From positions 96,001-160,000 of the IMG/VR virus record IMGVR_UViG_3300043411_001575: a stretch of 64,000 nucleotides of DNA; one strand, written 5' to 3'. Numbering within the stretch: position 1 is the stretch's first letter; the number at the start of each line of letters is the position of its first letter. Positions 1 to 19,702 of the stretch are shown here, piece by piece. Origin of the DNA: a virus. The notes beneath the pieces are model-generated. The model did not search any database, had not been told where the DNA came from, and worked only from the letters and a program-made list of their open reading frames with translations. Position numbers and translations under genes: made by a program.

Positions 1-84
1 TATATACGCTGTTATAGCCAGTAGGGATTTTTAGCACAAACGTTTAATCGAAGCACTAAAAGAAAAATTAAAAAAAGAGAAGGG

Positions 85-840
85 ATGGAAATAAATAAAA
101 TATACACAGGAGATAATTTGGAATTGCTTAAAACATTCCCTGATAACACTATTGATTTGATTGTTACCTCACCAAATTATAATAATTGGAGAAACAGAAG
201 AACACAAGCAAGTAGGAAAGATTTTTGGGAACGAACCAATATAACTTATGATAATTGCACAGACAAAGAAGATGATGAAACATATGAAGCAAGGCAAATA
301 GAAATAATAAATGAGATGGTAAGAGTTCTAAAACCAACTGGAACAATTTGCTACAACCACAAAGATAGAATATTTGAATTTGAAGTAAAATCACCTTTGG
401 AATGGATTTTAAAGACAAATGCAAAATACAGACAGAGAATTACATGGGATAGATGTGGTATGCAAGCGTATAATCCTGTTAGATTTTATAGGGTTGATGA
501 AGATATTTATATACTTGGAAAAGAAGCAAAGGGATTTACTTGGAATAAAGAAGCTGCAAAGTATTTAAGTATTTGGCGAATTGTTCCAAACAAAAATATT
601 TACGGACATAATGCTACATTTCCAGAAGAACTTGTAAAAAGATGTGTTGAAGCATTTACCAATGAAGGAGATTTGGTTTTAGACCCATACAACGGAACTG
701 GAACAACAACCAAAGTAGCTTATGAGATGAAAAGAAATTTTATCGGAATTGATAATTCTGAAAAATATAATGAAATAGCTGAAACTCGTATTAAAGAGTG
801 CGGTGGGTCTTTTTTTAATTTTTCTAACGAAAATGATTAA
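85..840 (+). CDS. DNA methyltransferase, beta class (N4C/N6A), cassette 1
   Basis: Motif IV TSPNY precedes motif I DPYNGTGTT; HNATFP. Confidence 0.9.
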   Translation: MEINKIYTGDNLELLKTFPDNTIDLIVTSPNYNNWRNRRTQASRKDFWERTNITYDNCTDKEDDETYEARQIEIINEMVRVLKPTGTICYNHKDRIFEFEVKSPLEWILKTNAKYRQRITWDRCGMQAYNPVRFYRVDEDIYILGKEAKGFTWNKEAAKYLSIWRIVPNKNIYGHNATFPEELVKRCVEAFTNEGDLVLDPYNGTGTTTKVAYEMKRNFIGIDNSEKYNEIAETRIKECGGSFFNFSNEND

Positions 841-866
841 TCGAAGCACTTCACCCCTATTGGCTA

Positions 867-957
867 TAACGGTGGCGATTGGCGAAGTAAAAGCATTTCA
901 CTGCTGCTGATGGTTATCACTATGCTCAATGGCTTTTATTTTGCCAATTGCGTGTTA
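867..957. repeat. attC-like hairpin H1
   Basis: TAACG..GCGATTGGCGAAGTAAAAGC / GCTTTTATTTTGCCAATTGC..TGTTA. Confidence 0.85.
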
Positions 958-1024
958 GCTGCTGTTTTTTTTCTCTTTGATTGTCAGTACTTTAGAAAAT
1001 AATTTAAAAATATCTTTGAAAATG

Positions 1025-1055
1025 TTTGCAGATTCAAAATAATGTTGTATCTTTG
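1025..1055 (+). promoter_or_regulatory. Bacteroidota-type primary sigma promoter in cassette 2
   Basis: TTTG-N19-TATCTTTG. Confidence 0.7.
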
Positions 1056-1079
1056 TTCTACAATTAAAAACAAAATAAA

Positions 1080-1277
1080 ATGACAAATTTGAATGAAATA
1101 GAAGTAACAGTAAAGGGTAACGATAGTATCACAGGTAGCGAAAGTTGGGTATCTAATTTAGAAAACTTAAAAAGTTGGGAACTCACAAATGATGAGATAA
1201 ACGAAATAATAGAGGGCAAAACAGTTAAATGTATATCTCCAAATGGTAGAAGAATTATATGGATAACAAAAAAGTAA
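1080..1277 (+). CDS. hypothetical protein, cassette 2
   Basis: ORF directly after promoter, A-rich leader. Confidence 0.7.
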   Translation: MTNLNEIEVTVKGNDSITGSESWVSNLENLKSWELTNDEINEIIEGKTVKCISPNGRRIIWITKK

Positions 1278-1423
1278 AAAGAGGTGGTAAACGCAAAAAT
1301 GCTGGTGCTAAACCTAAATACTCGGAGCTAACTAAAACGGTTGCCTTTCGCTGTCCATTGTCAAAGGTTGATGAACTGAAAATAGTTGTCAAGTCTAAAC
1401 TTTCGGAGTGGTCGGTAAAATAG
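1259..1423 (+). CDS. small ribbon-helix-helix-like DNA-binding protein (54 aa, not in ORF track)
   Basis: MDNKKVKRGGKRKNAGAKPKYSELTKTVAFRCPLSKVDELKIVVKSKLSEWSVK; paralogs in cassettes 5, 8, 12. Confidence 0.75.
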   Translation: MDNKKVKRGGKRKNAGAKPKYSELTKTVAFRCPLSKVDELKIVVKSKLSEWSVK

Positions 1424-1427
1424 CAGC

Positions 1428-2412: not shown

Positions 2413-2474
2413 TAACGGTTTGCAGCTAAACGCTGATTTTGTTCTTCACAAAATTTGCGATTTAGGTGCTGTTA
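2413..2474. repeat. attC-like hairpin H4 (short)
   Basis: TAACGGTTTGCAGCTAAA..TTTAGGTGCTGTTA. Confidence 0.8.
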
Positions 2475-2551
2475 TGTATCAGTTTATTTTTTACTTTTTT
2501 GCGTTGGCTTTCAATTAGTTACACAATTTAACAAAAATAATCTTGAAATTG

Positions 2552-2582
2552 TTTGCAGATTCAAAATATAGCCGTATATTTG
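2552..2582 (+). promoter_or_regulatory. Bacteroidota-type promoter in cassette 5
   Basis: TTTG-N19-TATATTTG. Confidence 0.7.
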
Positions 2583-2602
2583 TATCAACAAAACGAAACA
2601 AC

Positions 2603-3004
2603 ATGGAAACAATTGAAAAAAAAATATTAGGATTCACAGAAGAAATAACAGTTTGTGATTGCTGTGGTAAGGCTGATTTAAAAGGAACTTACGCTATTGA
2701 TTGGGAAGGTACAATTGCATATTACGGAAGCGTTTGTGCTTTTAAAGTGCATGGTGCTACTATTGAAGAGCAAAAGGAAGTGAAGAAAGCATACACTAAA
2801 AGAATGAAAGCGACTGAAAAATTAGCACAAATGGAAGCTGAATACAATGGAACACAATATGCTTTAGTAAAAATGTTTCGTTTTGTTGAAGAGAAGAAAT
2901 TGGATGTAATGGCTTTCATTAATAAATACGGAAAAAAATGTGATGAGAACGATTATTACATTGCTTACGAAATTGGACACGTTGTAAAATGTATAGACAA
3001 ATGA
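2603..3004 (+). CDS. hypothetical Cys-motif protein, cassette 5
   Basis: CDCCGK..YYGSVCA; ATG at 2603 follows the promoter. Confidence 0.7.
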   Translation: METIEKKILGFTEEITVCDCCGKADLKGTYAIDWEGTIAYYGSVCAFKVHGATIEEQKEVKKAYTKRMKATEKLAQMEAEYNGTQYALVKMFRFVEEKKLDVMAFINKYGKKCDENDYYIAYEIGHVVKCIDK

Positions 3005-3297
3005 AAGAATGTACAATGTGCGCTTTAAAAGAGCCTGAATTTAAAAAGTGCATTTTTAGCGATTGCCCTAATGGTGTAAATTTTGTAACCTGCGATTGTG
3101 GAGAGAAAATTTACAACACGGATGGCAAAAAAGCGAAGTGCAAAAAATGCAAACCACATGGAGGTAAAAGGCTAAATGCAGGACGAAAAAGCCAATACAA
3201 AGAAGAAACGCAAACAATTTCTTTCCGTGTACCAAAATCACTAATTGAACCGATTACAAAATACGTCAAACGTGCGCTGGCAAAAAGTAAAAAATAA
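3001..3297 (+). CDS. Cys-rich protein with C-terminal RHH-like domain, cassette 5
   Basis: HGGKRLNAGRK..TISFRVPKSLIEPI. Confidence 0.7.
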   Translation: MKECTMCALKEPEFKKCIFSDCPNGVNFVTCDCGEKIYNTDGKKAKCKKCKPHGGKRLNAGRKSQYKEETQTISFRVPKSLIEPITKYVKRALAKSKK

Positions 3298-3305
3298 ATT
3301 GTACA

Positions 3306-3393
3306 TAACGTTTTGCGTATATGAGAAGTGGCACTTGCACAAACTTGAAATTTAGCACAAATGTTTCTGTGCCATTTCTTATATACGCTGTTA
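3306..3393. repeat. attC-like hairpin H5 (identical to H9)
   Basis: GCGTATATGAGAAGTGGCAC / GTGCCATTTCTTATATACGC. Confidence 0.9.
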
Positions 3394-3495
3394 TGTGTAG
3401 TTGCGGTTTAATAGCAGGGAGTTCAATTTGAAATGAGATACTTTTTCTTTTCTTTTTTGAGCGATGGCAAAAATAAATTTGAAAAATTTAAAAAT

Positions 3496-4308
3496 ATGAT
3501 TGATATAAACAAGAATTACAATGAAAGTAATTTAGAAACAATGGCAAAGATGCCTGATTGCTTTGTAGATTTAACAGTAACATCTCCACCTTATGATGGA
3601 TTGCGAACTTATAATGGATATTCATTTCCATTTGAAGATATTGCAAAGGAGTTGTTTAGAATTACAAAAGATGGTGGCGTATTAGTTTGGGTTATTTCAG
3701 ATGCTACCGTTCAAGGAAATGAAAGCGGAACATCATTTAAACAAGCCTTATATTTCAAAGAGATTGGTTTTAATTTGCACGACACAATGATTTGGATTAA
3801 AGACGGTGGTGGTGCAGTAGGAAGCAATAAGTGTTACACACAAAACTTTGAATATATGTTTGTGTTTTCAAAAGGAAAAATAAATACTACAAATCTAATT
3901 TATGATAAACCAAACGCTTCTTTTGGTAAAGATAAAAGCGGAGTAGGTAGAAGATTGGTAACTGGTGAACACAAAATAGAAAAGCGTAAACCAAGTGCCG
4001 AATTTAGTAGAAGAAACAACTATTGGTATATCGCACCACAAAAAGGCGAACACCCTGCGGTATTCCCAGAAGCACTTGCAAATGACCATATTTTAAGTTG
4101 GAGTAATGAGAATGACTTAATTTATGACCCATTTATGGGAAGTGGTACAACCGCTAAAATGAGTATTCTAAATAACAGAAATTGGATAGGCAGTGAATTA
4201 TCCTCTGAATACTGTGATATGATTGTGCAACGAATTAAAAAAGCGTTGGAAGAAAAAAGAAAAGAAAAAGATTTAATAGCAAACTCTTTATTTGGAAACG
4301 ACTTTTAG
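3496..4308 (+). CDS. DNA methyltransferase, beta class, cassette 6
   Basis: TSPPY, HPAVFP, DPFMGSGTT. Confidence 0.92.
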   Translation: MIDINKNYNESNLETMAKMPDCFVDLTVTSPPYDGLRTYNGYSFPFEDIAKELFRITKDGGVLVWVISDATVQGNESGTSFKQALYFKEIGFNLHDTMIWIKDGGGAVGSNKCYTQNFEYMFVFSKGKINTTNLIYDKPNASFGKDKSGVGRRLVTGEHKIEKRKPSAEFSRRNNYWYIAPQKGEHPAVFPEALANDHILSWSNENDLIYDPFMGSGTTAKMSILNNRNWIGSELSSEYCDMIVQRIKKALEEKRKEKDLIANSLFGNDF

Positions 4309-4318
4309 CAATTACACA

Positions 4319-4415
4319 TAACGTTTTGCGGCTTTGCGTTCGGTTTTTTGCCTTATCCGAATGTCCAAATTTAGCACAATGTTTAAAGGCAAAAACTGAC
4401 GCAAAACCGATGTTA
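4319..4415. repeat. attC-like hairpin H6
   Basis: TTTGCGTTCGGTTTTTTGCCTT / AAGGCAAAAACTGACGCAAA. Confidence 0.85.
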
Positions 4416-4489
4416 TAAGCTGGCTGCGGTTTATTAAACGAAAAGCTAAATACGAAGCACTAAAGAAAAGAATTTAAAAAAAGGAAGGG

Positions 4490-5308
4490 ATGGAAATAAA
4501 TAAAATATACAACGAAAATTGCCTTGAAACGATGGCTAAAATGCCTGACAATTTCATTGACTTAACGGTTACTTCTCCGCCTTATGACGATTTAAGAACA
4601 TACAATGGATATTGTTTTGACTTTGAAAATGTAGCAAAAGAATTGTTTAGAGTAACAAAACAAGGTGGTGTAGTTGTTTGGATTGTAAACGATAGCACAA
4701 AAAACGGTAGTGAAAGTTTAACATCATTTAAACAGGCTATTTATTTTGTTGGTTGTGGGTTTAATTTGCACGATACTATGATTTACAAAAAGAAAAATCC
4801 GATACCACTAAACCATAATAGATATGAGCAAAGTTTTGAATATATGTTTGTTTTTAGCAAGGGGAAACCGAAAACATTTAACCCTATTATGGAAGATTGT
4901 GTATTTGCTGGGAAAGACATAGTTAAGAACAGAACATTTTACCAAACAGATGAAAGTAAAACAAGTAAAGGACATAAGAATAAACCTATAAAAGAGCAAA
5001 AAATAAAACAGAACATTTTTGAATATTCACTATACGGAGGCAAAAAGGATTTTATACAAGGTGCTGTTTTTCCTGAACAACTTGCAACCGACCAAATAAT
5101 AAGTTGGAGCAATGAAAATGATTTGGTTTATGACCCTTTTATGGGAAGTGGTACAACGGCTAAAATGGCAATTTTGAATAATAGAAAATATATTGGCAGT
5201 GAAATTTCAGAAGATTACTGTAAGATTATCGAAACTCGTATTAAAGAGTGCGGTGGGCTTTTTTTTAATTCTTTTCAAACGGAATTGTCAAACGAAGCAG
5301 GAACGTAG
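4490..5308 (+). CDS. DNA methyltransferase, beta class, cassette 7
   Basis: TSPPY, DPFMGSGTT; paralog of cassette 6. Confidence 0.92.
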   Translation: MEINKIYNENCLETMAKMPDNFIDLTVTSPPYDDLRTYNGYCFDFENVAKELFRVTKQGGVVVWIVNDSTKNGSESLTSFKQAIYFVGCGFNLHDTMIYKKKNPIPLNHNRYEQSFEYMFVFSKGKPKTFNPIMEDCVFAGKDIVKNRTFYQTDESKTSKGHKNKPIKEQKIKQNIFEYSLYGGKKDFIQGAVFPEQLATDQIISWSNENDLVYDPFMGSGTTAKMAILNNRKYIGSEISEDYCKIIETRIKECGGLFFNSFQTELSNEAGT

Positions 5309-5319
5309 CAGCTTGCTTA

Positions 5320-5445
5320 TAACGGTTTCGGGCTTGGCGAAGAAGCGGACTTATACCACTAAAGTTGATACGAAGAACCAATGTTGATGCTACTACAAAT
5401 GTTCATACGAAGCACTAAACCCGCTTTTTTGCCAATACTTTGTTA
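5320..5445. repeat. attC-like hairpin H7 (near-identical to H11)
   Basis: TTGGCGAAGAAGCGG / CCGCTTTTTTGCCAA. Confidence 0.85.
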
Positions 5446-5527
5446 TGCGTTCGCCTTATTTTTTCGTGTTGATTTTCAGCAAGTTAGAAACTATTTTAAA
5501 AATAAATCAAAAATACTTTGAAAAAAG

Positions 5528-5558
5528 TTTGCAGTTATCAAAATAGGTTGTATATTTG
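5528..5558 (+). promoter_or_regulatory. Bacteroidota-type promoter in cassette 8
   Basis: TTTG-N19-TATATTTG. Confidence 0.7.
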
Positions 5559-5587
5559 TACCAGATAACAATTAAAAAATAAACAAA

Positions 5588-5737
5588 ATGACAACAGCAA
5601 CAGTAAAATCAGAAGCAAAATGGAAAACACAATTTCAAATAATGTGGAATAACACACCAAAGAAATTAAGAAGAACCATCTCACAAGTAAACAACATTAA
5701 ATCACAAGCAAAATTATACGCAGCATTATGGATGTAA
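5588..5737 (+). CDS. small hypothetical protein (49 aa), cassette 8
   Basis: ATG at the position equivalent to 8218 in sister cassette 12. Confidence 0.6.
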   Translation: MTTATVKSEAKWKTQFQIMWNNTPKKLRRTISQVNNIKSQAKLYAALWM

Positions 5738-5949
5738 CAGCAAAAATGGAGCAGGGCAATATAAAAGCCCTGTTCCCCAACTTAGGAATGGAAGTAATTA
5801 CAAATGGCTGTGTTTGCCAAATTATTCAAATCTCATCTCAACAAATCAAAGTCGAAATAACCGAAGCAATAAACCCGATGTATAAAGTTGGAAATCAAAT
5901 TTGGGTTGATAGCTTTTTAATACCATCCGATGAAAAAGAAAAAAACTAA
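5728..5949 (+). CDS. hypothetical protein, cassette 8
   Basis: ORF overlapping both neighbours. Confidence 0.6.
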   Translation: MDVTAKMEQGNIKALFPNLGMEVITNGCVCQIIQISSQQIKVEITEAINPMYKVGNQIWVDSFLIPSDEKEKN

Positions 5950-6097
5950 TAGAGGTGGAGTTCGGGATGGGGCTGGTAGAAAAAAAGCAGACTACGAAAC
6001 AAAAACTATTTCCTTTCGTGTTCGTCTTGAATTTGTAGAACCGATTAAAAAGATGGTCAAGGATTATGTTTCGGAGCGTCTTAAAGGTGACGCATAA
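5930..6097 (+). CDS. small RHH-like DNA-binding protein (55 aa), cassette 8
   Basis: RGGVRDGAGRKKADYETKTISFRVRLEFVEPIKKMV; stop codon is the TAA of TAAC. Confidence 0.75.
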   Translation: MKKKKTNRGGVRDGAGRKKADYETKTISFRVRLEFVEPIKKMVKDYVSERLKGDA

Positions 6098-6214
6098 CGT
6101 TCGAGGGCTTGGCGAAGTGGCTGAACCTGAAGCTAAATAGAATTACTAAACTTAAAAATTAAGAACGAATGATTGATAGAATTACTGAACAGCCATTTTG
6201 CCAAACCCGTGTTA
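6095..6214. repeat. attC-like hairpin H8, contains the start codon of the next gene
   Basis: TTGGCGAAGTGGCTG / CAGCCATTTTGCCAA; same family as H17, H18, H25. Confidence 0.9.
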
Positions 6215-6939
6215 GTGGCAGTACTTTTGTGAATGCTGATTGCTTTGATGTTTTTCCTTTTATCGAGGATAAATCAATTGATGCTATTATTGCCGATTTG
6301 CCTTATGGAACTACTCAAAATAAATGGGATAGTATTTTGCCACTTAATAAACTTTGGAAAGAATACAAGCGGATTTTAAAAGATAGTGGTTGTGTTGTTC
6401 TTTTTGCTCAAACTCCATTTGACAAAGTACTTGGTTGTTCAAATTTAGATTGGTTAAAATACGAATGGATTTGGGATAAAAAACTTGGAAGTGGTTCTTT
6501 GAATGTAAAAAAAATGCCTTTAAAAAGACACGAAAATATATTAGTATTTAGCAAAGGGAAAACCACATATAATCCACAAATGACAAAAGGTAAATTTAGA
6601 AATAAAAGTACAAGTAAGCCATCATCTAATAAAGGTAATTACGGAGAAATAACACACCAAAAAGATAATTTTAATGATGATTATTATCCAACCACTATTT
6701 TAGAATTTACTAATGCAAATGTAAGAGCAAGGGTTCATCCAACTGAAAAACAATTATCTCTTATGGAATACCTTGTAAAAACATACACAAACGAAGGCGA
6801 TACAGTTTTAGATAATACAATGGGTTCAGGAACAACAAACTTGGCTTGTATCAAATTAAATCGCAAATCAATTGGAATTGAAAAGGAAAAACAATATTAC
6901 GATGTCGCTGTTCGGAGGGCTTCGGAGTATTGCCACTAA
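6169..6939 (+). CDS. DNA methyltransferase, beta class, cassette 9
   Basis: DLPY, HPTEK, DNTMGSGTT. Confidence 0.9.
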   Translation: MIDRITEQPFCQTRVSGSTFVNADCFDVFPFIEDKSIDAIIADLPYGTTQNKWDSILPLNKLWKEYKRILKDSGCVVLFAQTPFDKVLGCSNLDWLKYEWIWDKKLGSGSLNVKKMPLKRHENILVFSKGKTTYNPQMTKGKFRNKSTSKPSSNKGNYGEITHQKDNFNDDYYPTTILEFTNANVRARVHPTEKQLSLMEYLVKTYTNEGDTVLDNTMGSGTTNLACIKLNRKSIGIEKEKQYYDVAVRRASEYCH

Positions 6940-7024
6940 CGTTTTGCGTATATGAGAAGTGGCACTTGCACAAACTTGAAATTTAGCACAAATGTTTCTG
7001 TGCCATTTCTTATATACGCTGTTA
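6937..7024. repeat. attC-like hairpin H9
   Basis: identical to 3306-3393. Confidence 0.9.
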
Positions 7025-7121
7025 TGCCCTCGTTGCGGTAATTTTAGAACTAACTTCAATCGAAGCACTAAGGCATTTTTATTCTTTTTGTGGGAGGGTT
7101 GAAAACTTTTTTAAAATAACA

Positions 7122-7152
7122 CTTGCTAATTAGCAAAATATAGTTACTTTTG
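7122..7152 (+). promoter_or_regulatory. Bacteroidota-type promoter in cassette 10
   Basis: CTTG-N19-TACTTTTG. Confidence 0.6.
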
Positions 7153-7188
7153 TAACGCAATAATGCAGAAAACTAAAATTTAAAAACA

Positions 7189-7419
7189 ATGTCAAAAGCA
7201 GTTTATCAATTATTATTTGCTAATCAATCTGCCGATTCAAAGGTGCGATATGAATTAGTTAGAGAAACAAAAATGTATGTTTTTTTAAGAGAAATCACAA
7301 AAGAACCTCAATACATTTTTAGAGTTCACAAAAAAACATTAAGCGTTAAGGGTATCAAGGAAGGTAAAAATGGTTATCAATTTGACGTGGCTGACGCAAG
7401 AATTTTAAAAAAAGTATAA
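7189..7419 (+). CDS. hypothetical protein, cassette 10
   Basis: ORF after promoter. Confidence 0.7.
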   Translation: MSKAVYQLLFANQSADSKVRYELVRETKMYVFLREITKEPQYIFRVHKKTLSVKGIKEGKNGYQFDVADARILKKV

Positions 7420-7421
7420 CT

Positions 7422-7607
7422 ATGCGACTATCTGTAACAGAATACGCAAAACAGCTTGGTGTAACTCGTCAAGCTGTTTTGTTACAGATTAAAGAAAAAA
7501 GGTTGCCTAATAATGTTAAGTCTGAAAAAATTGGCAACACTTACTCTTTAACTGTGGGTGGGCAAAAAAAGAATAAAAATGCTTCCAATAAACTACAATC
7601 GAAGTAG
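7422..7607 (+). CDS. small HTH DNA-binding protein, cassette 10
   Basis: LSVTEYAKQLGVTRQAVLLQIK helix-turn-helix pattern. Confidence 0.75.
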   Translation: MRLSVTEYAKQLGVTRQAVLLQIKEKRLPNNVKSEKIGNTYSLTVGGQKKNKNASNKLQSK

Positions 7608-7625
7608 TATCGTAGCAATGGGGCA

Positions 7626-7715
7626 TAACGGTTGAGTGTATGAGTAGTGTGGCTTTGTACATACTCTCGACTTACAGATAAATTTATTTAGCCACATTAC
7701 TTATACACTTTGTTA
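7626..7715. repeat. attC-like hairpin H10
   Basis: AGTGTATGAGTAGTGTGGCT / AGCCACATTACTTATACACT. Confidence 0.88.
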
Positions 7716-7738
7716 TAGGTATGTAAAATTTACGGATT

Positions 7739-7933
7739 ATGAAACAGAAATATGTAAGATGCTTAGATAAGTTTGAAGTAGAATTAAAAGAAGGTGATAT
7801 TGTTGATGTTCAAATGGATGGTGAACATGAAATATATAAGAAAGAAGGTGGACAACTCTACTTCAAACCTTATGGAAAAGAAGATATGGTAAGTGCTTAC
7901 TTCTCAAATGATATGATTAAGGTAGAACGGTAG
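7739..7933 (+). CDS. small hypothetical protein with YopX-like motif, cassette 11
   Basis: LDKFEVELKEGDIV resembles the YopX D-K-x-G-x-E-I-Y-E-G-D-I motif. Confidence 0.6.
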   Translation: MKQKYVRCLDKFEVELKEGDIVDVQMDGEHEIYKKEGGQLYFKPYGKEDMVSAYFSNDMIKVER

Positions 7934-7949
7934 TAAATTTTATTACCTA

Positions 7950-11813: not shown

Positions 11814-11910
11814 TATGAAGTGCCGACTTATTAAGCAGAATTTTAAATTGAAACTATAAACAGAAAAACAAAAAAGAAAAAAAGCGTAGGGAATTTTAAA
11901 AACAAACAAT

Positions 11911-12177
11911 ATGGAAAAGAATTTTATTGAAAAAGCAGAAAAAGAAATTGGTAGAAAATTTGGTTTTTTCATCAGATGTGATGATAAAAACAAACCAACA
12001 GAAGTATTAACCGATATGTACTTTGAACTATGGGAAACAGAAAAGATGAACGAGATTTTATCTTTATGCGAAACACATAATCTTAAATACGATTTTGGTT
12101 TAGAAAGTTTTGATACCAAAATAGATGCTATTGAACAAGAAATATGTATTGTTTCAACTAATTGCGAAAATTCATAA
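11911..12177 (+). CDS. hypothetical protein, cassette 17
   Basis: ORF 1 nt upstream of the MTase ATG. Confidence 0.65.
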   Translation: MEKNFIEKAEKEIGRKFGFFIRCDDKNKPTEVLTDMYFELWETEKMNEILSLCETHNLKYDFGLESFDTKIDAIEQEICIVSTNCENS

Positions 12178-12178
12178 A

Positions 12179-12922
12179 ATGGAAGCAAATACGATTTACA
12201 AAGGCGATTGCTTTGAACTTATAAAGCAAATAACAAAAGCAGATAACGTCAAACTTATTATTACAGACCCACCATATTTACATAATAAAGGAGGTGGGAA
12301 AACATCGGGAACAGAGGGTAAAAGTTCAATAGCTAATAGCCCTATGTATAAATTCGATTCATTTATGATGGAAGATATGAGTTCTTTTTTAGAGGAAGAT
12401 GTTTATAATCTATTAGATGAATATAAAAGAATAATGACAAAATTAAACTGCTTTATATTTACTAATGACACTTTGATACCGTATTATACAATGTGGGCAG
12501 TTAAAAACAATAAAAAGTTTACAATTTTAACTTGGGAAAAACCATTGTCGATTTTAAACAGAAATAGATTTAGTCAGAATTTAGAATATGTTGTGAGGAT
12601 TTACGACAATGGAACTGCACTTAATTTAATAGATTTAGAAGCATATCCCGAAAAGAAAAACTACTACTCAAAAAACAGAAGGTTAAATTCGCCTACAAAT
12701 AAGATACACCCAACCCAAAAACCATTAGAATATCTACTTGGATTGATTGAGTTAAATACAAATGAAGGCGATTTAGTATTAGATACGTTTTTTGGTAGTG
12801 GACAAACAGGTAAGGCTTGTCAGATTTTAAATAGAAATTATATCGGTTTTGAAAGAGAAGAAAAGTATGTTGAATTATCAAATAAATATTTACAACAAGG
12901 ATTTGAAAAAACACTATTTTAA
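12179..12922 (+). CDS. DNA methyltransferase, beta class, cassette 17
   Basis: TDPPY, HPTQKP, DTFFGSG. Confidence 0.92.
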   Translation: MEANTIYKGDCFELIKQITKADNVKLIITDPPYLHNKGGGKTSGTEGKSSIANSPMYKFDSFMMEDMSSFLEEDVYNLLDEYKRIMTKLNCFIFTNDTLIPYYTMWAVKNNKKFTILTWEKPLSILNRNRFSQNLEYVVRIYDNGTALNLIDLEAYPEKKNYYSKNRRLNSPTNKIHPTQKPLEYLLGLIELNTNEGDLVLDTFFGSGQTGKACQILNRNYIGFEREEKYVELSNKYLQQGFEKTLF

Positions 12923-12997
12923 AAGTGTGGTGGCTTTTTTCTTTTTGTTTTTCATTAACGGAACTTCAATTGGAAACGGTCAGCAAGGCATTTCATA

Positions 12998-13117
12998 TAA
13001 CGTTCGAGGGCTTGGCGAAGTGGCTGAACCTGAAGCTAAATAGAATTACTAAACTTAAAAATTAAGAACGAATGATTGATATAATTACTGAACAGCCATT
13101 TTGCCAAACCCGTGTTA
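12998..13117. repeat. attC-like hairpin H17, contains start codon
   Basis: near-identical to H8. Confidence 0.9.
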
Positions 13118-13881
13118 GTGGCAGTACTTTTGTGAATGCTGATTGCTTTGATGTTTTTCCTTTTATCGAGGATAAATCAATTGATGCTATTATTTGCGAT
13201 TTGCCCTATGGAACAACTCAATGTAAATGGGATAGCATTATTAATTTAGATTTGATGTGGACGCAATACAACAGAATAATAAAAGATAACGGCATTTTTA
13301 TATTATTTGCAGATGAGCCTTTTACAAGCATATTAATAAATAGTAACATTAAAAATTTTAAGCAAAGAATAACTTGGGATAAACAAATAGCAGGAGGTCA
13401 TTTAAACGCTAAAAAAATGCTATTGAAAAGAACTGAGGATATATGCTTATTTTCAAATGTTAAAAATGGAAAATATACATACAATCCTATTTTAAAAGAT
13501 AAGGATTTTAAAAACATAAGAGATAGAAACGGAGAAAACAGAAAAGAGTTTAAAGGCGGTTATGTAGGGAAACACAATAGTACGTTGAGTAAAGAGCATA
13601 ACAATAAAAAAAGTTACCCAGATAATTTAATTTCCTTTTCAGCAAGAAAAGGCGATTGTAACCCTATAAATAGATTACACCCAACACAAAAACCACTTGA
13701 ATTGATGGAATATCTTATAAAAACCTATACTAATGAGGGCGATTTGGTTTTAGATAACACAATGGGTTCTGGAACAACAATTTTAGCTGCTATAAAAAAT
13801 AATAGAATTGGTATAGGAATTGAAAAGGAAAAACAATATTATGATGTCGCTGTTCGTAGGGCTTCGGAGTATTGCCACTAA
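13072..13881 (+). CDS. DNA methyltransferase, beta class, cassette 18
   Basis: DLPY, HPTQKP, DNTMGSGTT. Confidence 0.9.
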   Translation: MIDIITEQPFCQTRVSGSTFVNADCFDVFPFIEDKSIDAIICDLPYGTTQCKWDSIINLDLMWTQYNRIIKDNGIFILFADEPFTSILINSNIKNFKQRITWDKQIAGGHLNAKKMLLKRTEDICLFSNVKNGKYTYNPILKDKDFKNIRDRNGENRKEFKGGYVGKHNSTLSKEHNNKKSYPDNLISFSARKGDCNPINRLHPTQKPLELMEYLIKTYTNEGDLVLDNTMGSGTTILAAIKNNRIGIGIEKEKQYYDVAVRRASEYCH

Positions 13882-13998
13882 CGTTATCGGGCTTGGCGAA
13901 GTGGCTGAACCCGAAGCTAAATAGAATTACTAAACTTAAAAATTAAAAACGAATGTCAAATAGAATTACAGAACAGCCATTTTGCCAAACCAGTGTTA
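13879..13998. repeat. attC-like hairpin H18, contains start codon
   Basis: H8 family. Confidence 0.9.
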
Positions 13999-14711
13999 GT
14001 GGCAGTACTTTTGTAAATGCTGATTGCTTTGATGTTTTTCCTTTTATTGAGGACAAATCAATTGATGCTATTATTTGCGATTTGCCTTATGGAACTACTG
14101 CTTGTAAGTGGGATACAATTATACCATTTGAGCCGCTATGGGAGCAGTACAAGCGAGTGATTAAACCTAATGGTGCGATAGTGCTGTTTAGCAAAGAGCC
14201 ATTTACGTGCATATTGAGAACAAGTGAAATTAAAATTTTTAAGCAACCTCTTATTTGGGATAAGGTTAATTCAGATAACCCTATGCAGGCAAAAAGAAGA
14301 CATCTAAACACTACGGAGGATATTTCTATCTTTTACAAATCTCAATGTACTTATAACCCACAAGGTCTTATAAAGTCAAATATAAAAAAGGGAGGGAAGC
14401 AAGGGATAATGATTGATAGTAGTGGTAAGGAAAAAGAACAATATATTCAAGAGAATACCAATTATCCGAAAAATATATTAGTGTACCCGATAGAAAGAAA
14501 GGCGGTTCATCCAACTCAAAAACCCGAAGCACTCCTGCAATACTTAGTCAAAACCTACACTAACGAAGGCGATATAGTCTTAGATAACTGTATGGGTTCA
14601 GGTACAACAAATCTTGCTTGTTTAAAATTAAATCGCAAATCAATTGGAATAGAAAAGGAAAAACAATATTACGATGTCGCTGTTCGTAGGGCTTCTGAGT
14701 ATTGCCACTAA
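13953..14711 (+). CDS. DNA methyltransferase, beta class, cassette 19
   Basis: DLPY, HPTQKP, DNCMGSGTT. Confidence 0.9.
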   Translation: MSNRITEQPFCQTSVSGSTFVNADCFDVFPFIEDKSIDAIICDLPYGTTACKWDTIIPFEPLWEQYKRVIKPNGAIVLFSKEPFTCILRTSEIKIFKQPLIWDKVNSDNPMQAKRRHLNTTEDISIFYKSQCTYNPQGLIKSNIKKGGKQGIMIDSSGKEKEQYIQENTNYPKNILVYPIERKAVHPTQKPEALLQYLVKTYTNEGDIVLDNCMGSGTTNLACLKLNRKSIGIEKEKQYYDVAVRRASEYCH

Positions 14712-14765
14712 CGGTATCCGTATAAGGGAAGTGCGAGGAACGAGCATTTACTTTATACGGTGTTA
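14709..14765. repeat. attC-like hairpin H19 (shortest, 57 bp)
   Basis: CCGTATAAGG / CTTTATACGG. Confidence 0.85.
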
Positions 14766-14856
14766 GCAAAGTGCGTTGGGATTGTGTGTCGGCTCGTTCC
14801 AAAACCATTTATTTTCTTTTTTTTGGGGAGGTTTTGAAAACTTTTTTACTAAAATA

Positions 14857-14887
14857 CTTGCTAAATGACAATTTATATTTATCTTTG
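14857..14887 (+). promoter_or_regulatory. Bacteroidota-type promoter in cassette 20
   Basis: CTTG-N19-TATCTTTG. Confidence 0.6.
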
Positions 14888-14918
14888 AACCATATTAATA
14901 ATCTAAAAACAAAACAAA

Positions 14919-15230
14919 ATGATTTACAAAAAAACACACTATGATAAAAAGGCTTTAAACAGCCACGTTTCAAAAATAAAAGATGCAGGAGGAAATGCAA
15001 TAGTAGATGGATTATCGGTTAGATATTTCTATCCATCCAATACCATTGGTGAAATTAGATTAAAGCATAAGAGTTGGAAGAAAACAGAAAGACAAGAAGT
15101 TTTGTTTATTGTTTTAGTTTCTGAAAAAGATAAAACGCCATACTATTCAGCAATGTATTTCCCGAAATGGGTTGAAATAGGAGGTGTTTATGGAAACAAA
15201 AATGACATAACAATAATCGAAAAGTTTTAA
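14919..15230 (+). CDS. hypothetical protein, cassette 20
   Basis: ORF after promoter. Confidence 0.7.
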   Translation: MIYKKTHYDKKALNSHVSKIKDAGGNAIVDGLSVRYFYPSNTIGEIRLKHKSWKKTERQEVLFIVLVSEKDKTPYYSAMYFPKWVEIGGVYGNKNDITIIEKF

Positions 15231-15232
15231 CT

Positions 15233-15388
15233 ATGAAACTGTCTGTAACAGAATATGCAAAACAGCTTGGCGTAACTCGTCAAGCCGTTTTGTTACAAAT
15301 TAAAGAAAAAAGGTTGCCTAAAAATGTGAAGGTTGAAAAAATCGGAAATACTTATTCTTTAACTGTGGGTGGGCAAAAAAGAAAATAA
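15233..15388 (+). CDS. small HTH DNA-binding protein (51 aa, not in ORF track), cassette 20
   Basis: MKLSVTEYAKQLGVTRQAVLLQIKEKRLP, paralog of 7422-7607. Confidence 0.75.
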   Translation: MKLSVTEYAKQLGVTRQAVLLQIKEKRLPKNVKVEKIGNTYSLTVGGQKRK

Positions 15389-15407
15389 ATGGTTTTGGAA
15401 TGTTTGC

Positions 15408-15497
15408 TAACGTATGGTGCTATGAGCAGGTTTGCCTTGCAGAAATGTTCAAATTTAGCACTAATGTTATTGGCAAACTTGCTTATAGCACGTGTTA
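15408..15497. repeat. attC-like hairpin H20
   Basis: GTGCTATGAGCAGGTTTGCC / GGCAAACTTGCTTATAGCAC. Confidence 0.88.
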
Positions 15498-15533
15498 GCG
15501 GTAGTTTATTTTTCAAAAATTAAAATTAAAAAT

Positions 15534-15992
15534 ATGGGAACACAAGTAGTAGGAGAAAGTAACAGCGTTGAGTATAGCACTCCGTTGAAAATAGTACAGC
15601 CATTGATAAACGAATTTGGCTTAACAAGAGATGTTTGTGCAAGTGAATTAAACCACAAACTACCCGATTATTGGACAAAAGAAGATAATTCACTTGCTAT
15701 GAATTGGAAAGGTAATTGTTGGATGAACCCACCATTTAGCAGAGATTTGAATAAGTGGGTAAAGAAAGCGTGTAATGATGCTGAAAGGTTTGGAGGAACG
15801 AAAGTTTGTTTAATACCTGTAAGAAGCAATACAAAATGGTGGGCGGAAGTTTGTGTAAAAGCAGAAATTCGTTTTATCAATGGCGAAGTAAATTTTAATG
15901 ATGAAGAACGTGGACTTTGGTTGCCGATGTGTATTATCATTTTCGGTGAGAAGGCAAAGGTTGGCACGTTCTCTGTCTTAAATTACCGCTAA
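15534..15992 (+). CDS. phage Dam-like N6-adenine methyltransferase, cassette 21
   Basis: YSTP, DVCAS, WMNPPFS, LIPVRSNTKWW, EIRFI. Confidence 0.88.
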   Translation: MGTQVVGESNSVEYSTPLKIVQPLINEFGLTRDVCASELNHKLPDYWTKEDNSLAMNWKGNCWMNPPFSRDLNKWVKKACNDAERFGGTKVCLIPVRSNTKWWAEVCVKAEIRFINGEVNFNDEERGLWLPMCIIIFGEKAKVGTFSVLNYR

Positions 15993-16062
15993 CGTTTTGC
16001 AGCTAACAGAAGGCGGCTTTTTAGCAAACTTAGTACTTGCCGCTTTTTGTTAGCTGCTGTTA
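15990..16062. repeat. attC-like hairpin H21
   Basis: GCAGCTAACAGAAGGCGGC / GCCGCTTTTTGTTAGCTGC. Confidence 0.88.
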
Positions 16063-16120
16063 GTGGACTGTTAAATTATTAAAAAAGAAAAAAGGAGGGG
16101 TGCGAGGGCATCTAAACATA

Positions 16121-16957
16121 ATGGACAAGAAGAAACTTTTAATTGCTTTTAGTGGTGGAGAAACATCTGCATTTATGGCTCAATGGTTATGGAAACATAA
16201 ACAAGGTGAATACGAAATGTTATTTGCTTTTGCTAATACTGGGGTTGAGAATGAAGAAACTTTAAACTTTGTGCATAAATGCGAAGTTGAATTTGGTATA
16301 AATGTTAATTGGTTGGAAGCAGTAATAGACCAAGAGAAAGGGAAAGGCACAAGGCATAAGATTGTTGATTACAAAACAGCAAGTAGAAACGGACAACCAT
16401 TTGAGGAACTGATAAAGAAATACGGTTTACCAAACCAACAGCGATTTCACTGCACAAGGGAGTTAAAAAATAATACATTGATTTCATTTGCAAAAAGTAT
16501 TTGGGGAAAGGAAAAGTATTATTTAGCAATAGGAATTAGAGTAGATGAATTTGATAGGATGAATGATAAATTTAAAGAGTTGAGAATTGTTTATCCGTTA
16601 ATTTCAGAAATTCCAATGACAAAGCCAAAGATTAATTTTTGGTGGAAACAACAACCGTTTAGATTAGAATTAAAAGGTTATCAAGGGAATTGTGTTACTT
16701 GCTACAAAAAAAGTGATAAAAAATTGTTTCAGATAGCTAAAGAAAATCCAAGTGCATTTGATTTCTTTGATAGAATGGAAGAACAATATGGAGAAGGTAA
16801 GTATCAATTTTTTAGGCAGAACCGAACAGCTAAACAAATTATGGAACAAGCTAAAGAATGGAATGGCAATGTAACCGATGACGCACAAAATGTTACAATA
16901 CAAACAGATTTATTTAGCGAAAGTTGTGAAGCATTTACAAGCGATTGCGGTGTTTAA
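16121..16957 (+). CDS. PAPS reductase-like (adenine nucleotide alpha hydrolase fold) protein, cassette 22
   Basis: PP-loop FSGGETSA, FANTG, CTRELK, IGIRVDE, YPL, NCVTC. Confidence 0.85.
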   Translation: MDKKKLLIAFSGGETSAFMAQWLWKHKQGEYEMLFAFANTGVENEETLNFVHKCEVEFGINVNWLEAVIDQEKGKGTRHKIVDYKTASRNGQPFEELIKKYGLPNQQRFHCTRELKNNTLISFAKSIWGKEKYYLAIGIRVDEFDRMNDKFKELRIVYPLISEIPMTKPKINFWWKQQPFRLELKGYQGNCVTCYKKSDKKLFQIAKENPSAFDFFDRMEEQYGEGKYQFFRQNRTAKQIMEQAKEWNGNVTDDAQNVTIQTDLFSESCEAFTSDCGV

Positions 16958-17026
16958 CCTTTTCACAGTTTTGAAAAAACTGAAAGAGTGCGTGGGCTTT
17001 TTCTTTTTTAATAATTTAATTGCCAC

Positions 17027-17152
17027 TAACGGTTCGCAGGTATATTTAGTTGCGGACTTAGTAACACAAAACTTTAAATTTAGAAGAAATGAAGAAAGAA
17101 GAACAAAACTCGAATGAACCACAAAAACCGCAATTGAATATACCTGCTGTTA
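17027..17152. repeat. attC-like hairpin H22, contains start codon
   Basis: GCAGGTATATTTAGTTGCGG / CCGCAATTGAATATACCTGC. Confidence 0.9.
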
Positions 17153-17445
17153 GTTGCAGTGTTGTTCATTGCAAGAAAGCACCTTATGATGTTTATATTG
17201 GAAGACCAAGCAAATGGGGTAATCCATTCACACACATAAAAGACGGTAAAACACTTGCAAAACATATTGTAGGTAGTAGAGATGAAGCAGTCGAAGCATA
17301 TCTTGAATGGATTACCAACGGAGAAGGTAAACATTTGATGAGTGATTTACACGAATTGAAAGATAAGGTGCTTGGTTGTTGGTGTCATCCACAATCTTGT
17401 CACGGAGATGTACTTTCGGAGTTGGTTGCTAAACATTGCAACTAA
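17089..17445 (+). CDS. DUF4326-like protein, cassette 23
   Basis: VYIGRPSKWGNPF..LGCWCHPQSCHGDVL. Confidence 0.85.
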   Translation: MKKEEQNSNEPQKPQLNIPAVSCSVVHCKKAPYDVYIGRPSKWGNPFTHIKDGKTLAKHIVGSRDEAVEAYLEWITNGEGKHLMSDLHELKDKVLGCWCHPQSCHGDVLSELVAKHCN

Positions 17446-17567
17446 CGTTTTGCAGGTATATTTAGTGCCGAATTTAAAAACGAAAAATATGAATTTTATA
17501 CAAAAGTTATTTAAAAGCAGAAAGGTTAATGAACCGATGAACTCGGCATTGAATATACCTGTTGTTA
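17443..17567. repeat. attC-like hairpin H23, contains start codon
   Basis: CAGGTATATTTAGTGCCGA / TCGGCATTGAATATACCTG. Confidence 0.9.
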
Positions 17568-17791
17568 TACCTCGTTTATCTTCTGATTGGATAAAATTTG
17601 AGGATGAAAAACCACCACACGAAGTAGTATTAGCTGCTTGCGATACTTATGATTGTGGATGGACTATGGATACTGTTTGGTGGTATGAAGATAAGCAATG
17701 TTGGATGGTTACTGGTGCAGTTAAAAGTACAGAAGCACATTTACCATACACACATTGGCGTAAATTACCACCATTTCCAAATGAGGTATAA
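17489..17791 (+). CDS. DUF551-like protein, cassette 24
   Basis: WIKFEDEKPP..VLA..THWRKLPPFP. Confidence 0.75.
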   Translation: MNFIQKLFKSRKVNEPMNSALNIPVVIPRLSSDWIKFEDEKPPHEVVLAACDTYDCGWTMDTVWWYEDKQCWMVTGAVKSTEAHLPYTHWRKLPPFPNEV

Positions 17792-17914
17792 CGTATTGGT
17801 GCTATACGAAGGAGGCGATTATTAGCACTAAATTTGATGCGGAGTACAAATGTTTGTTTAACCACAAATGTTTCTGCGGAGTACCAAACCGCCTCTTTTG
17901 TATAGCACGTGTTA
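17789..17914. repeat. attC-like hairpin H24
   Basis: GTGCTATACGAAGGAGGCG / CGCCTCTTTTGTATAGCAC. Confidence 0.88.
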
Positions 17915-17978
17915 TACGCTGGCACGGTTGATTAAACGAGAAACTTAAATTGAAACACAAAACAAAATTTTTATTAAA

Positions 17979-18764
17979 ATGAGCGAGGGCAAAAAAGAAA
18001 TATTATTAGGAGATTGTTTGGAACTTATGAAGGATATACCAAACGGAAGTATTGATATGATACTTTGTGATTTACCATACGGAACAACTGCTTGTAAATG
18101 GGATAGTGTAATACCTTTTGAACCACTTTGGAAAGAATATGAAAGGATTATAAAGACCAATGGTGCTATTTTATTGTTTGGAACACAACCATTCACAACA
18201 GAACTAATATTGAGCAATAGAAAATTGTTTAAGTATGATATGGTTTGGTGCAAAGACAAACCTGCTGACTTCGGAAATGGCAATATAAAACCATTAAGAT
18301 ACCACGAAACAATTTGTGTATTTTATACCAAAACGCCAACATACAATAAGCAATTTGAAAGCAGAAAAGGAACTGGCTATTCAAGGGCTAAATATCCTGT
18401 AAATTACATAAACAATTCAGAGCATAAATTTGGAATGAAAGATGGTTCTTTTGATTATGCAAATAAAGACAGAATGATTGGAACTGTAATAGATATTACA
18501 ACTGGTGCAAGAGGTAGCATAAAACACCCAACAGTAAAGCCCGTTCCTTTATTTGAACATTTAATCAAAACATATACCAACGAAGGTGAATTGGTTTTAG
18601 ATAATACAGCAGGAAGCGGAACAACTGCAATTGCTTGTTTGAATACTAAAAGGCAATTTATAGTAATGGAAAAAGAACAAAAGTATTACGATATGATTTT
18701 AAAAAGGGTGGGAGATTTTAATAAAAATTTTGAACCGCAAACTCTCTTTGGAAACGAAATGTAG
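17979..18764 (+). CDS. DNA methyltransferase, beta class, cassette 25
   Basis: GDCL, DLPY, HPTVKP, DNTAGSGTT. Confidence 0.9.
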   Translation: MSEGKKEILLGDCLELMKDIPNGSIDMILCDLPYGTTACKWDSVIPFEPLWKEYERIIKTNGAILLFGTQPFTTELILSNRKLFKYDMVWCKDKPADFGNGNIKPLRYHETICVFYTKTPTYNKQFESRKGTGYSRAKYPVNYINNSEHKFGMKDGSFDYANKDRMIGTVIDITTGARGSIKHPTVKPVPLFEHLIKTYTNEGELVLDNTAGSGTTAIACLNTKRQFIVMEKEQKYYDMILKRVGDFNKNFEPQTLFGNEM

Positions 18765-18774
18765 TGCTTGCGTA

Positions 18775-18894
18775 TAACGGTATCGGGCTTGGCGAAGTGG
18801 CTGAACCGAATGTTTGATAGAAGCACAAAACTTAATAATTAAAAACGAATGATTGATAGAATTACTGAACAGCCATTTTGCCAAACCCGTGTTA
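18775..18894. repeat. attC-like hairpin H25, contains start codon
   Basis: H8 family stems. Confidence 0.9.
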
Positions 18895-19643
18895 TGTGCA
18901 GGGCGGTTGATAACCTTGAACTCCTTTTGTCGCAACCTGATGAAAGTGTAGATTTGATTTACTGTGATATTCTTTATGGAACGGGTAGGAATTTCGGTGA
19001 TTACCAAGACTTAAAACCAATTAGAAGCGAAATAGAAAGCCACTACCTACCAAGACTTATTGAAATGAAACGAGTTTTAAAAAGTACAGGTAGTATTTAT
19101 TTGCAAATGGATACACGAATAAACCATTGGATGCGCATTTTGATGGATGATGTTTTTGGGTATGAAAATTTCCGCAATGAAATAGTATTTGGATATAATG
19201 GGGGTGGTGTTTCAAAGAATTGTTATCCTAAAAAACACGACATAATCTTGTTTTATTCTGTTAGTGATAAATACTATTTTAATAACGAAAAGAAACCATA
19301 CTCCGCTTTAAGTTCACAAAACTTATTGTGGAAACATAGGAATAAAAAAAGACTTGATGAACTTAATGATGGCACACCTGTAACCGATGTATGGACTGAT
19401 TTGAAGTTTAAAATAAATTACCAAGAGGAAGAATATACAGGATATGCTACCCAAAAAACAAAAGAATTATTGAGCCGTATTGTTTTAGCTTCCACAAATG
19501 AAGGCGATACAGTTGCAGATTATTATTTAGGTAGTGGCACAACGGCAGTAGTTTGTAAGGAACTGAACCGAAATTTTATAGGTTGCGATATTAATCCAAA
19601 AGCTATTGAAATAACAAATGCTCGTTTAGATGCACTTTCGTAG
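18849..19643 (+). CDS. DNA methyltransferase, beta class, cassette 26
   Basis: DLIYCDILY (variant motif IV), FRNEIV, YATQK, DYYLGSGTT. Confidence 0.85.
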   Translation: MIDRITEQPFCQTRVMCRAVDNLELLLSQPDESVDLIYCDILYGTGRNFGDYQDLKPIRSEIESHYLPRLIEMKRVLKSTGSIYLQMDTRINHWMRILMDDVFGYENFRNEIVFGYNGGGVSKNCYPKKHDIILFYSVSDKYYFNNEKKPYSALSSQNLLWKHRNKKRLDELNDGTPVTDVWTDLKFKINYQEEEYTGYATQKTKELLSRIVLASTNEGDTVADYYLGSGTTAVVCKELNRNFIGCDINPKAIEITNARLDALS

Positions 19644-19702
19644 CTTTGCACATAACGTGTATTTAATGGAATGGAGTGTCAAAATCAATTAGTTACATAA
19701 TA
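19640..19702. other. putative attI-like primary recombination site
   Basis: Last TAACG (19653-19657) is followed by the integrase gene instead of a hairpin and TGTTA. Confidence 0.55.

Follow-up and report, generated by a model that had tools for sequence, protein, structure and literature searches.

Cassette-specific self-pairing ends and strand-biased wobble pairs in a phage gene array beside a Xer-like recombinase

Why do the two ends of each gene cassette in a phage array pair with one another, when the sequences of these ends differ from cassette to cassette? The question is raised by IMG/VR virus record IMGVR_UViG_3300043411_001575 (169,658 bp, 31% G+C, CheckV completeness 82%), of which bases 96001–160000 form the window analysed here (64,000 nucleotides). 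The record carries a cassette array of ~38 kb that starts on the left near contig position 77,300 and whose right-hand half occupies window positions 11–19656. The array genes all lie on the + strand in one row, with ~50 hairpin elements of 57–130 nt between them that always have TAAC at the 5' end and GTTA at the 3' end. The cargo includes many DNA methylases (PF01555 and MT-A70; Pfam), and the only tyrosine recombinase gene in the contig lies directly 3' of the last cassette (window 19703–20572, + strand). The answer that we favour, and consider rather probable, is that the paired cassette ends make up the outer arm, one strand each, of a recombination site that would exist only in a folded single strand.

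Window units were taken from each GTTA to the next cassette-end TAAC, and both motifs are present in 26/26. The original prediction, made from the window sequence, held that each cassette start pairs with its own end, that every end reads T-N6-TAAC and that in nearly all of them this T faces a G. All three claims hold, and the three end pairs quoted as examples are exact. T is found at −11 in 26/26 ends. G occurs at +11 in 19/26 starts and at +11 or +12 in 26/26; the seven +12 cases have one extra (bulged) base in the start arm, which again places G opposite T(−11). Of the first 15 positions, 10–15 are matched to the cassette's own end by Watson–Crick or G.T pairs. Covariation was assessed in 186 non-redundant cassettes by counting Watson–Crick pairs over positions 5–15 without position 11 (maximum 10). 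A start and its own end form a mean of 7.9 pairs, with at least 8 in 67% of cassettes, against 3.5 for the end and start on either side of a single hairpin in the array and 3.6 for random start–end pairs. The pairing thus belongs to the individual cassette and not to a common consensus.

The pairing profile has a defined length. The Watson–Crick fraction is 0.8–0.93 at positions 5–9 and 0.5–0.6 at position 10, where T.T is frequent. At position 11 G.T accounts for 0.67–0.79 and Watson–Crick pairs for just 0.04–0.05. Positions 12–15 return to 0.64–0.81, and from position 16 on the profile equals the background of 0.25. This drop indicates a typical stem of 15 bp. For the 9–20 nt stem originally proposed, the pairing itself is real, with a typical length of 15 bp and stems of 20–26 nt as exceptions; the expectation that it would be longer than the 7-bp R box of attC stands. 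A coding constraint was considered as the source of the fixed T and G and rejected, since many arms are non-coding and genes end at varying distances from TAAC.

The same features occur in other phage contigs. A 17-nt piece of one hairpin is present in >116 other IMG/VR contigs, and a structure-only search identified 1–10 hairpins in most of these >116 loci, always in consistent orientation. These contigs contributed 174 further non-redundant cassettes with T(−11) in 98%, G.T at position 11 in 79% and A.T in just 3%. A second set was picked solely by recombinase homology (80 loci at 36–79% identity, out of 499 relatives) and added 136 non-redundant cassettes with the same profile and T(−11) in 100%. 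Together with the 42 from the array itself this makes three non-redundant sets, with 310 further cassettes beyond the original array. In the 80 loci chosen by homology the hairpins are confined to the upstream side of the recombinase gene and share its orientation, apart from two isolated reverse hits. If a one-base bulge is allowed, T(−11) lies opposite G in 36/38 stemmed cassettes of the array. The original prediction had staked itself on conservation in homologous arrays, and there the G.T pair is kept, on the same terms, in 133/137 and 111/113 stemmed cassettes of the other two sets.

Relatives outside this group are distant. A single scan of bacterial genome contigs for close relatives of the recombinase returned just an unrelated 30% match in a Christensenellales metagenome-assembled genome, and the best tblastn matches to the recombinase in isolated phages are <38% identical. 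Polaribacter phage Freya_10 (MT732472.1) was considered as a member and rejected, since inspection upstream of the integrase gene revealed no clear array of TAAC..GTTA hairpins. The integrase encoded by the Freya phages is 31% identical, and ten isolates differ by up to 4 kb in how far it lies from the start of the record. In the 4080–4150 region of Freya_10 the motif attgttgcTAAC occurs ~50 nt before the integrase start codon, again with no clear hairpin array seen.

The hairpins themselves are built to a common design. In ~255 unique sites aligned by their 3' arm, TAAC is followed by G (98%), a bulge of 3–4 nt (K-T-T) and a 21-bp inner stem, and T immediately precedes GTTA in 99%. Counted back from GTTA along the inner 3' arm (B), position −15 is a G.T pair in 96% of sites and a Watson–Crick pair in 4%, position −12 is G.T in 61%, position −7 is A in 99% and position −6 is a C.A mismatch in 47%. 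TAAC...GTTA with the 21-bp inner stem was found at 25/25 in-window sites and ~325 unique sites elsewhere, and 24/25 window hairpins have G.T at −15. Recurrent single-base bulges (extrahelical bases) were not found in the aligned sites, which have the 3–4 nt bulge and the fixed wobbles. When the cassette-end motif was slid along the inner 3' arm, a single best register was obtained at offset 4 (score 8.8, next best 3.2), which superimposes T(−11) on T(−15), the A of TAAC on the invariant A(−7) and the last C on C(−5). This register gives two dyad-related arms, T-N6-TAAC and T-N6-WAWC, with predicted cut positions 6 bp apart, and from it we infer a dif-like 11-6-11 layout for the folded stem.

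The features of the window are as follows, with the paired fraction of the first 15 positions and the position of the G where noted.

11–870, +: cassette 1, N6/N4 DNA methylase (PF01555); arms 11–25 with 856–870, 15/15 paired, G11.T
867–957, +: hairpin site TAAC..GTTA, 91 nt; inner stem with G.T at B(−15)
954–1431, +: cassette 2, self-pairing ends; 15/15, G11.T
1428–1517, +: hairpin site, 90 nt
1514–1741, +: cassette 3, 23-nt self-pairing ends; T.T at 10, G.T at 11, pairing on to position 23
1738–1827, +: hairpin site, 90 nt
1824–2416, +: cassette 4, MT-A70 methylase (PF05063); 15/15, G11.T
2413–2474, +: hairpin site, 62 nt, short form
2471–3309, +: cassette 5; 12/15, G at +12
3306–3393, +: hairpin site, 88 nt; fold of window 3296–3403 is −20.8 kcal/mol on the + strand and −15.9 kcal/mol on the − strand
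3390–4322, +: cassette 6, methylase-like ORF 3433–4308; 15/15, G11.T; circle fold computed
4319–4415, +: hairpin site, 97 nt; sole site with C.T at B(−15)
4412–5323, +: cassette 7; 14/15, T.T at 10, G.T at 11
5320–5445, +: hairpin site, 126 nt, with arms from two different hairpin families as read from sequence
5442–6098, +: cassette 8, own promoter-like region, small ORFs; G at +12, one bulged base
6095–6214, +: hairpin site, 120 nt, contains the ATG of the next ORF (6169)
6211–6940, +: cassette 9, methylase, stop codon supplied by TAAC (its TAA); 15/15, G11.T
6937–7024, +: hairpin site, 88 nt, same family as 3306–3393
7021–7629, +: cassette 10; G at +12
7626–7715, +: hairpin site, 90 nt
7712–7953, +: cassette 11; 12/15, G at +12
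7950–8074, +: hairpin site, 125 nt
8071–8628, +: cassette 12, paralogue of cassette 8
8625–8713, +: hairpin site, 89 nt
8710–9572, +: cassette 13; 14/15, G11.T
9569–9693, +: hairpin site, 125 nt, contains the ATG of the next ORF (9621)
9690–10425, +: cassette 14, methylase-like, stop codon in TAAC
10422–10536, +: hairpin site, 115 nt
10533–10828, +: cassette 15, 21-nt self-pairing ends
10825–10912, +: hairpin site, 88 nt
10909–11730, +: cassette 16; 15/15, G11.T
11727–11813, +: hairpin site, 87 nt
11810–13001, +: cassette 17; 15/15, G11.T
12998–13117, +: hairpin site, 120 nt
13114–13882, +: cassette 18; 15/15, G11.T
13879–13998, +: hairpin site, 120 nt
13995–14712, +: cassette 19; 15/15, G11.T
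14709–14765, +: hairpin site, 57 nt, short form
14762–15411, +: cassette 20, weakest stem (9 bp, then poor pairing); 10/15, G at +12
15408–15497, +: hairpin site, 90 nt
15494–15993, +: cassette 21; 15/15, G11.T
15990–16062, +: hairpin site, 73 nt
16059–17030, +: cassette 22, weak stem, 8 bp contiguous; 10/15, G at +12
17027–17152, +: hairpin site, 126 nt
17149–17446, +: cassette 23; 15/15, G11.T
17443–17567, +: hairpin site, 125 nt
17564–17792, +: cassette 24; 14/15, G11.T
17789–17914, +: hairpin site, 126 nt
17911–18778, +: cassette 25; 14/15
18775–18894, +: hairpin site, 120 nt, the last complete one
18891–19656, +: cassette 26, the last, with a TAAC end and no hairpin after it
19653–19702, +: attI-like junction, terminal TAAC and conserved ~47 nt up to the recombinase start; variable cassette end, then TAAC, then a flank conserved in related contigs
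19703–20572, +: Xer-like tyrosine recombinase, 289 aa from the ATG at 19703

Several units of the array depart from the simple plan. The hairpin at 5320–5445 has the 5' arm of the 'gggcttggcgaag' family and the 3' arm of the 'gccaatacttt' family, and its arms pair poorly, which suggests an exchange within a hairpin. A few cassettes upstream of the window lack own-end pairing. In the one at contig 83679–84243 the start (GTTAGCAAAG..) is unpaired with the end (..TGGGGCATAAC), and the two halves match two different cassettes elsewhere in the array, as if two cassettes had fused or a hairpin had been lost. Four 'empty cassettes' of 29 or 72 nt (contig 87999–88027, 95902–95930, 92293–92364 and 93300–93371) consist of self-pairing arms and a short loop and nothing else, the minimal 29-nt form being the arm alone, closed by G.T. 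Each of the four is preceded by an unusually long hairpin (324–386 nt) with a small gene in its loop, so that a gene can occupy either loop of the folded circle. A 50-nt TAAC..GTTA palindrome (ctgTAAC..GTTAcag) occurs at window 7435–7484 and at five similar places upstream, e.g. contig 84049–84098, within a small helix-turn-helix-like gene that recurs in several cassettes. These palindromes mimic sites but are without the arm features, and were dropped from the counts as false positives.

Coding sequence and site also overlap. The ATG of several methylase ORFs lies inside the preceding hairpin of 120–126 nt (window 6169, 9621, 13072, 13953 and 18849), which supplies the start codon and the first ~14–23 codons; this arrangement fits a hairpin that moves together with its downstream gene. 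At window 6937–6939, 10422–10424, 13879–13881 and 14709–14711 the TAA of the invariant TAAC doubles as the gene's stop codon. The final residues of such a protein are thereby encoded in the end arm, and the start arm falls within the N-terminal region or immediately ahead of it.

The wobble pairs are distributed unequally between the strands. In the inner stems 566 wobbles fall on the + strand, where the − strand has a mismatch, and 217 the reverse; per site, 251 favour the + strand and 8 the − strand. Sites were reconstituted as own end, hairpin and own start and folded with DNA parameters. The proposal accompanying the original prediction, that circularised cassettes be folded on both strands, thereby received an answer: the sense (+) strand is the more stable in 208/213 reconstituted sites, with a mean gain of 4.6 kcal/mol. 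Relative to the same hairpin in array context, the circle form gains 7.3 kcal/mol in stability and, together with the covariation, conforms to the single continuous stem across the TAAC/GTTA core that had been anticipated for the excised cassette. Cassette genes are encoded on the folding strand in 191/236 non-redundant cassettes and on the other strand in 1.

These observations bear on the role of the G.T pair, which the original prediction took as a recognition feature. It is conserved in homologous arrays, as required, but it is not unique: the inner G.T (96%) is its equal, and further wobbles share the strand bias. The two equally fixed wobbles, at +11 and −15, lie on opposite strands of the stem. 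An A instead of G would make a perfect palindrome at this position, and both strands would present the same arm. With G opposite T, the sense strand keeps a wobble and reads T, whereas the complementary strand has an A.C mismatch and reads C. The pattern holds for both hairpin arms, whose T is almost invariant, and the flank beside the recombinase has the predicted complement, A at +15, in 86% of junctions. Hence the wobbles are probably better read as the determinant of which strand forms the site than as a single-pair tag, and probably set the choice of the sense strand, which in integrons falls to extrahelical bases and the IntI-specific domain.

The recombinase matches Pfam Phage_integrase at 1.9e-43, and the catalytic motifs LRVSE, KGNKDR, HLLRH, GHS and TQIY are visible. 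Its best NCBIfam match is XerA_Arch (206 bits, cut-off 220), followed by XerD and XerC, far below their cut-offs. The integron-integrase model TIGR02249 falls short of its cut-off (154.8 bits, cut-off 265), and the match is broken into two pieces with model positions 181–239 left out, which we take to be the location of the IntI-specific domain. The best solved relative is XerA of Pyrococcus abyssi (4a8e), and the match to IntI4 (2a3v) is likewise split in two. By these sequence comparisons the enzyme is Xer-like, without the IntI insert, and not an integron integrase.

At the recombinase-proximal end, in every case examined, the last cassette has a normal arm and TAAC, with no hairpin behind it. 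A conserved flank of 45–100 nt extends from the terminal TAAC to the recombinase start, the boundary between variable and conserved sequence lying at TAAC. In 28 non-redundant junctions this flank reads TAYTA-TATRTA (in most lineages TAYTA-TATGTAAA), which presumably resembles the XerD arm of Escherichia coli dif (TTATGTTAAAT). Position +15 of the flank is A in 86%, where the model with a 6-bp centre predicts the arm T on the other strand.

Which neighbour travels with the hairpin was judged from linkage counts, as BLAST breakpoints at ≥93% identity were too few to place the crossover. Among site pairs, hairpin and downstream gene are shared 37 times and hairpin and upstream gene 2 times; shared cassettes in different contexts keep the upstream hairpin 6 times and the downstream one 0 times. 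The mobile unit is probably the hairpin with its downstream gene, and not GTTA..TAAC alone. Taken together, the folding asymmetry, the TAAC junction by the recombinase and the hairpin–downstream linkage suggest that polarity is reversed relative to classical integrons, with the sense strand the likely substrate and the crossover likely at TAA^C.

Pairing, covariation, fixed wobbles, strand asymmetry, array layout and the link to the recombinase family are computed properties of these loci, and they can be assembled into the following scheme. In a circular single-stranded cassette in vivo, the end (..A-T-N6-TAAC) would pair with the start (GTTA-N6-G..) over ~15 bp. This outer stem would stack on the 21-bp inner stem to form one long stem with a 3–4 nt bulge (G-K-T-T) after TAAC. 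T-N6-TAAC on the cassette-end strand and T-N6-WAWC on the inner-stem 3' strand would then be two arms 6 bp apart, an 11-6-11 layout that would suit binding by the Xer-like recombinase encoded at the array end. The outermost T opposite G in both arms would create a proper site on the sense strand only, and this strand would be cleaved at TAA^C. Circles would insert at the TAAC junction beside the recombinase gene, where new units would enter, and the mobile unit in transit would be a hairpin and the following gene.

A number of observations weigh against this scheme. Within the array the outer arm cannot extend past TAACG/TGTTA, so that the complete arm would form only in the circle or through long-range pairing across the gene, and excision is left unexplained. 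The inner arm carries a degenerate motif, a single motif alignment is the basis for the 11-6-11 reading, and the attI flanks have ATA, not TAA, beside the predicted inner cut. The linkage counts are small and not phylogenetically independent, and 35 site pairs show the same downstream cassette start after a different hairpin, which makes the linkage a bias and not a rule. At lower BLAST stringency, breaks in similarity are seen at GTTA and not only at TAAC. On its left side (contig 77240–77361) the array has a hairpin 3' arm with GTTA and a weak 5' arm, but no intact TAAC, and this far boundary is degenerate. Finally, G.T pairs are also expected from a hairpin in sense-strand RNA.

Among other explanations, the one that survives best is that these are integron-type sites of the classical kind, with a folded antisense (bottom) strand, crossover at G^TTA, a unit of gene plus downstream hairpin and merely a longer R box; we consider this improbable. 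Folding of the bottom strand, with genes read away from attI, is the mode of all studied integrons (PMC12614218, PMC8618304), and both the GTTA breakpoints and the 35 site pairs with one downstream start and different hairpins are in its favour. However, the antisense fold is the worse one in 208/213 sites and has A.C mismatches at the fixed positions, the array ends by the recombinase in a bare TAAC without a hairpin in 28 junctions, hairpins keep the upstream gene in just 2 cases versus 37 and 0 versus 6, and the enzyme is without the IntI domain that reads bottom-strand extrahelical bases.

A role in RNA is quite improbable as the whole explanation. It would make the elements intercistronic hairpins, with long-range 5'/3' pairing in the transcript, that serve processing, stability or translation control. 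All wobbles are on the transcribed strand, where G.U is ordinary, and the hairpins lie between genes and in some cases hold the start codon of the next gene. The invariant TAAC/GTTA core and the two arms 6 bp apart are left unexplained, as are the strict linkage and co-orientation with a tyrosine recombinase family, the TAAC junction beside its gene, and the reshuffling of hairpin/gene modules with breakpoints at the core. The same stems may have an additional role in RNA.

It is very improbable that the end pairing is a relic of cassette birth, in which a gene dropped into the loop of an older small hairpin, with no present role in recombination. The empty 29-nt and 72-nt cassettes and the genes found inside hairpin loops are compatible with such an origin. 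However, pairing ends sharply at position 15, and the fixed 15-bp length, compensatory changes and fixed wobble in ~350 diverged cassettes from many phages argue for continuing selection. Very improbable too are ordinary double-stranded sites, in which the duplex around GTTA (inner 3' arm, 6 bp, cassette start) would form 11-6-11 without folding: the spacing at the GTTA junction is right by construction and Xer enzymes normally act on duplex dif, but this gives no reason for the start–end covariation, and the start arm in the duplex would read C where all other arms have T.

The folded sense-strand site thus remains the preferred reading. A broader claim, that an integron counterpart of independent origin, based on a plain Xer-type recombinase, is present in phages whose hosts are Bacteroidota-like, with wobble-encoded strand choice and reversed polarity, is advanced tentatively and at slightly less than even confidence. 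Small attC clusters, some with methylase genes, occur in phages (PMC9892861), and were all that literature searches on this system turned up; no account of the site design, of this recombinase family beside such arrays or of the reversed polarity came to light in them. Recombination at integron sites is the standard example of an enzyme guided by the shape of DNA more than by its sequence; here a simpler Xer-like enzyme goes together, across hundreds of phage contigs, with long cassette-specific arms and one-strand G.T wobbles. If the interpretation is true, it would explain how a phage maintains and exchanges its stock of DNA methylases, whose probable role is to shield phage DNA from host restriction enzymes. 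It would also bear on how integrons could have come from Xer systems, and the broader claim would mean that structure-specific gene capture evolved from Xer a second way. The compact rule set (T-N6-TAAC, G opposite T, a 6-bp centre and a 4-nt bulge) would describe a minimal, designable single-strand recombination site.

Of the known systems, integrons are the nearest. Their attC sites are R''/L''/L'/R' hairpins recombined by IntI, and strand choice depends on extrahelical bases read by the IntI-specific domain. In both systems cassettes are parted by imperfect hairpins with AAC/GTT at the base, the initial bases of each cassette are the partner of the inverse core at the opposite end, one end of the array has a tyrosine recombinase gene with an attI(-like) junction, and the sites have an unpaired central element, a variable loop and an apparent preference for one strand. 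The attC site has a 7-bp R box and single extrahelical bases, whereas the phage site has a 15-bp outer arm with a fixed G.T, a 3–4 nt bulge and fixed wobbles. The bottom strand folds in integrons and, by prediction, the sense strand here, where genes point towards attI and the recombinase (191 vs 1) and the junction is on the TAAC side. Integron cassette genes, driven from Pc, read away from attI. The recombinase is without the IntI insert (154.8 bits, cut-off 265), and the array is phage-borne and stocked mainly with DNA methylases. The system would thus resemble an integron in operation but departs from it in the defining features of IntI, strand and orientation.

The dif site of E. coli has two ~11-bp arms around a 6-bp central region. 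The phage system is like Xer/dif systems (XerA, XerH, XerCD) in its recombinase, which is closest to XerA, XerD and XerC, and in the two predicted ~11-bp arms ending ..TAA beside a 6-bp centre. However, Xer systems have one site per replicon and serve dimer resolution, whereas here dozens of sites per genome (~50 in 38 kb of a single phage contig) would be folded from one strand, with arms variable in sequence but paired, and would serve gene-cassette capture. In CTX-phi a folded single-stranded attP hairpin is recombined at dif by the host XerCD. There too a folded single strand imitates a duplex Xer site with an imperfect central region, and a single strand exchange is presumably resolved by replication. 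CTX-phi, however, integrates a whole phage through one site, whereas the present element encodes its own recombinase and its sites bound many small cassettes in a phage genome. The pdif sites of Acinetobacter plasmids are 28-bp duplexes in alternating orientation that are acted on by the host XerCD. They likewise bound small gene modules with Xer-type sites that are reshuffled between replicons, but have no hairpins, no start–end covariation and no dedicated recombinase.

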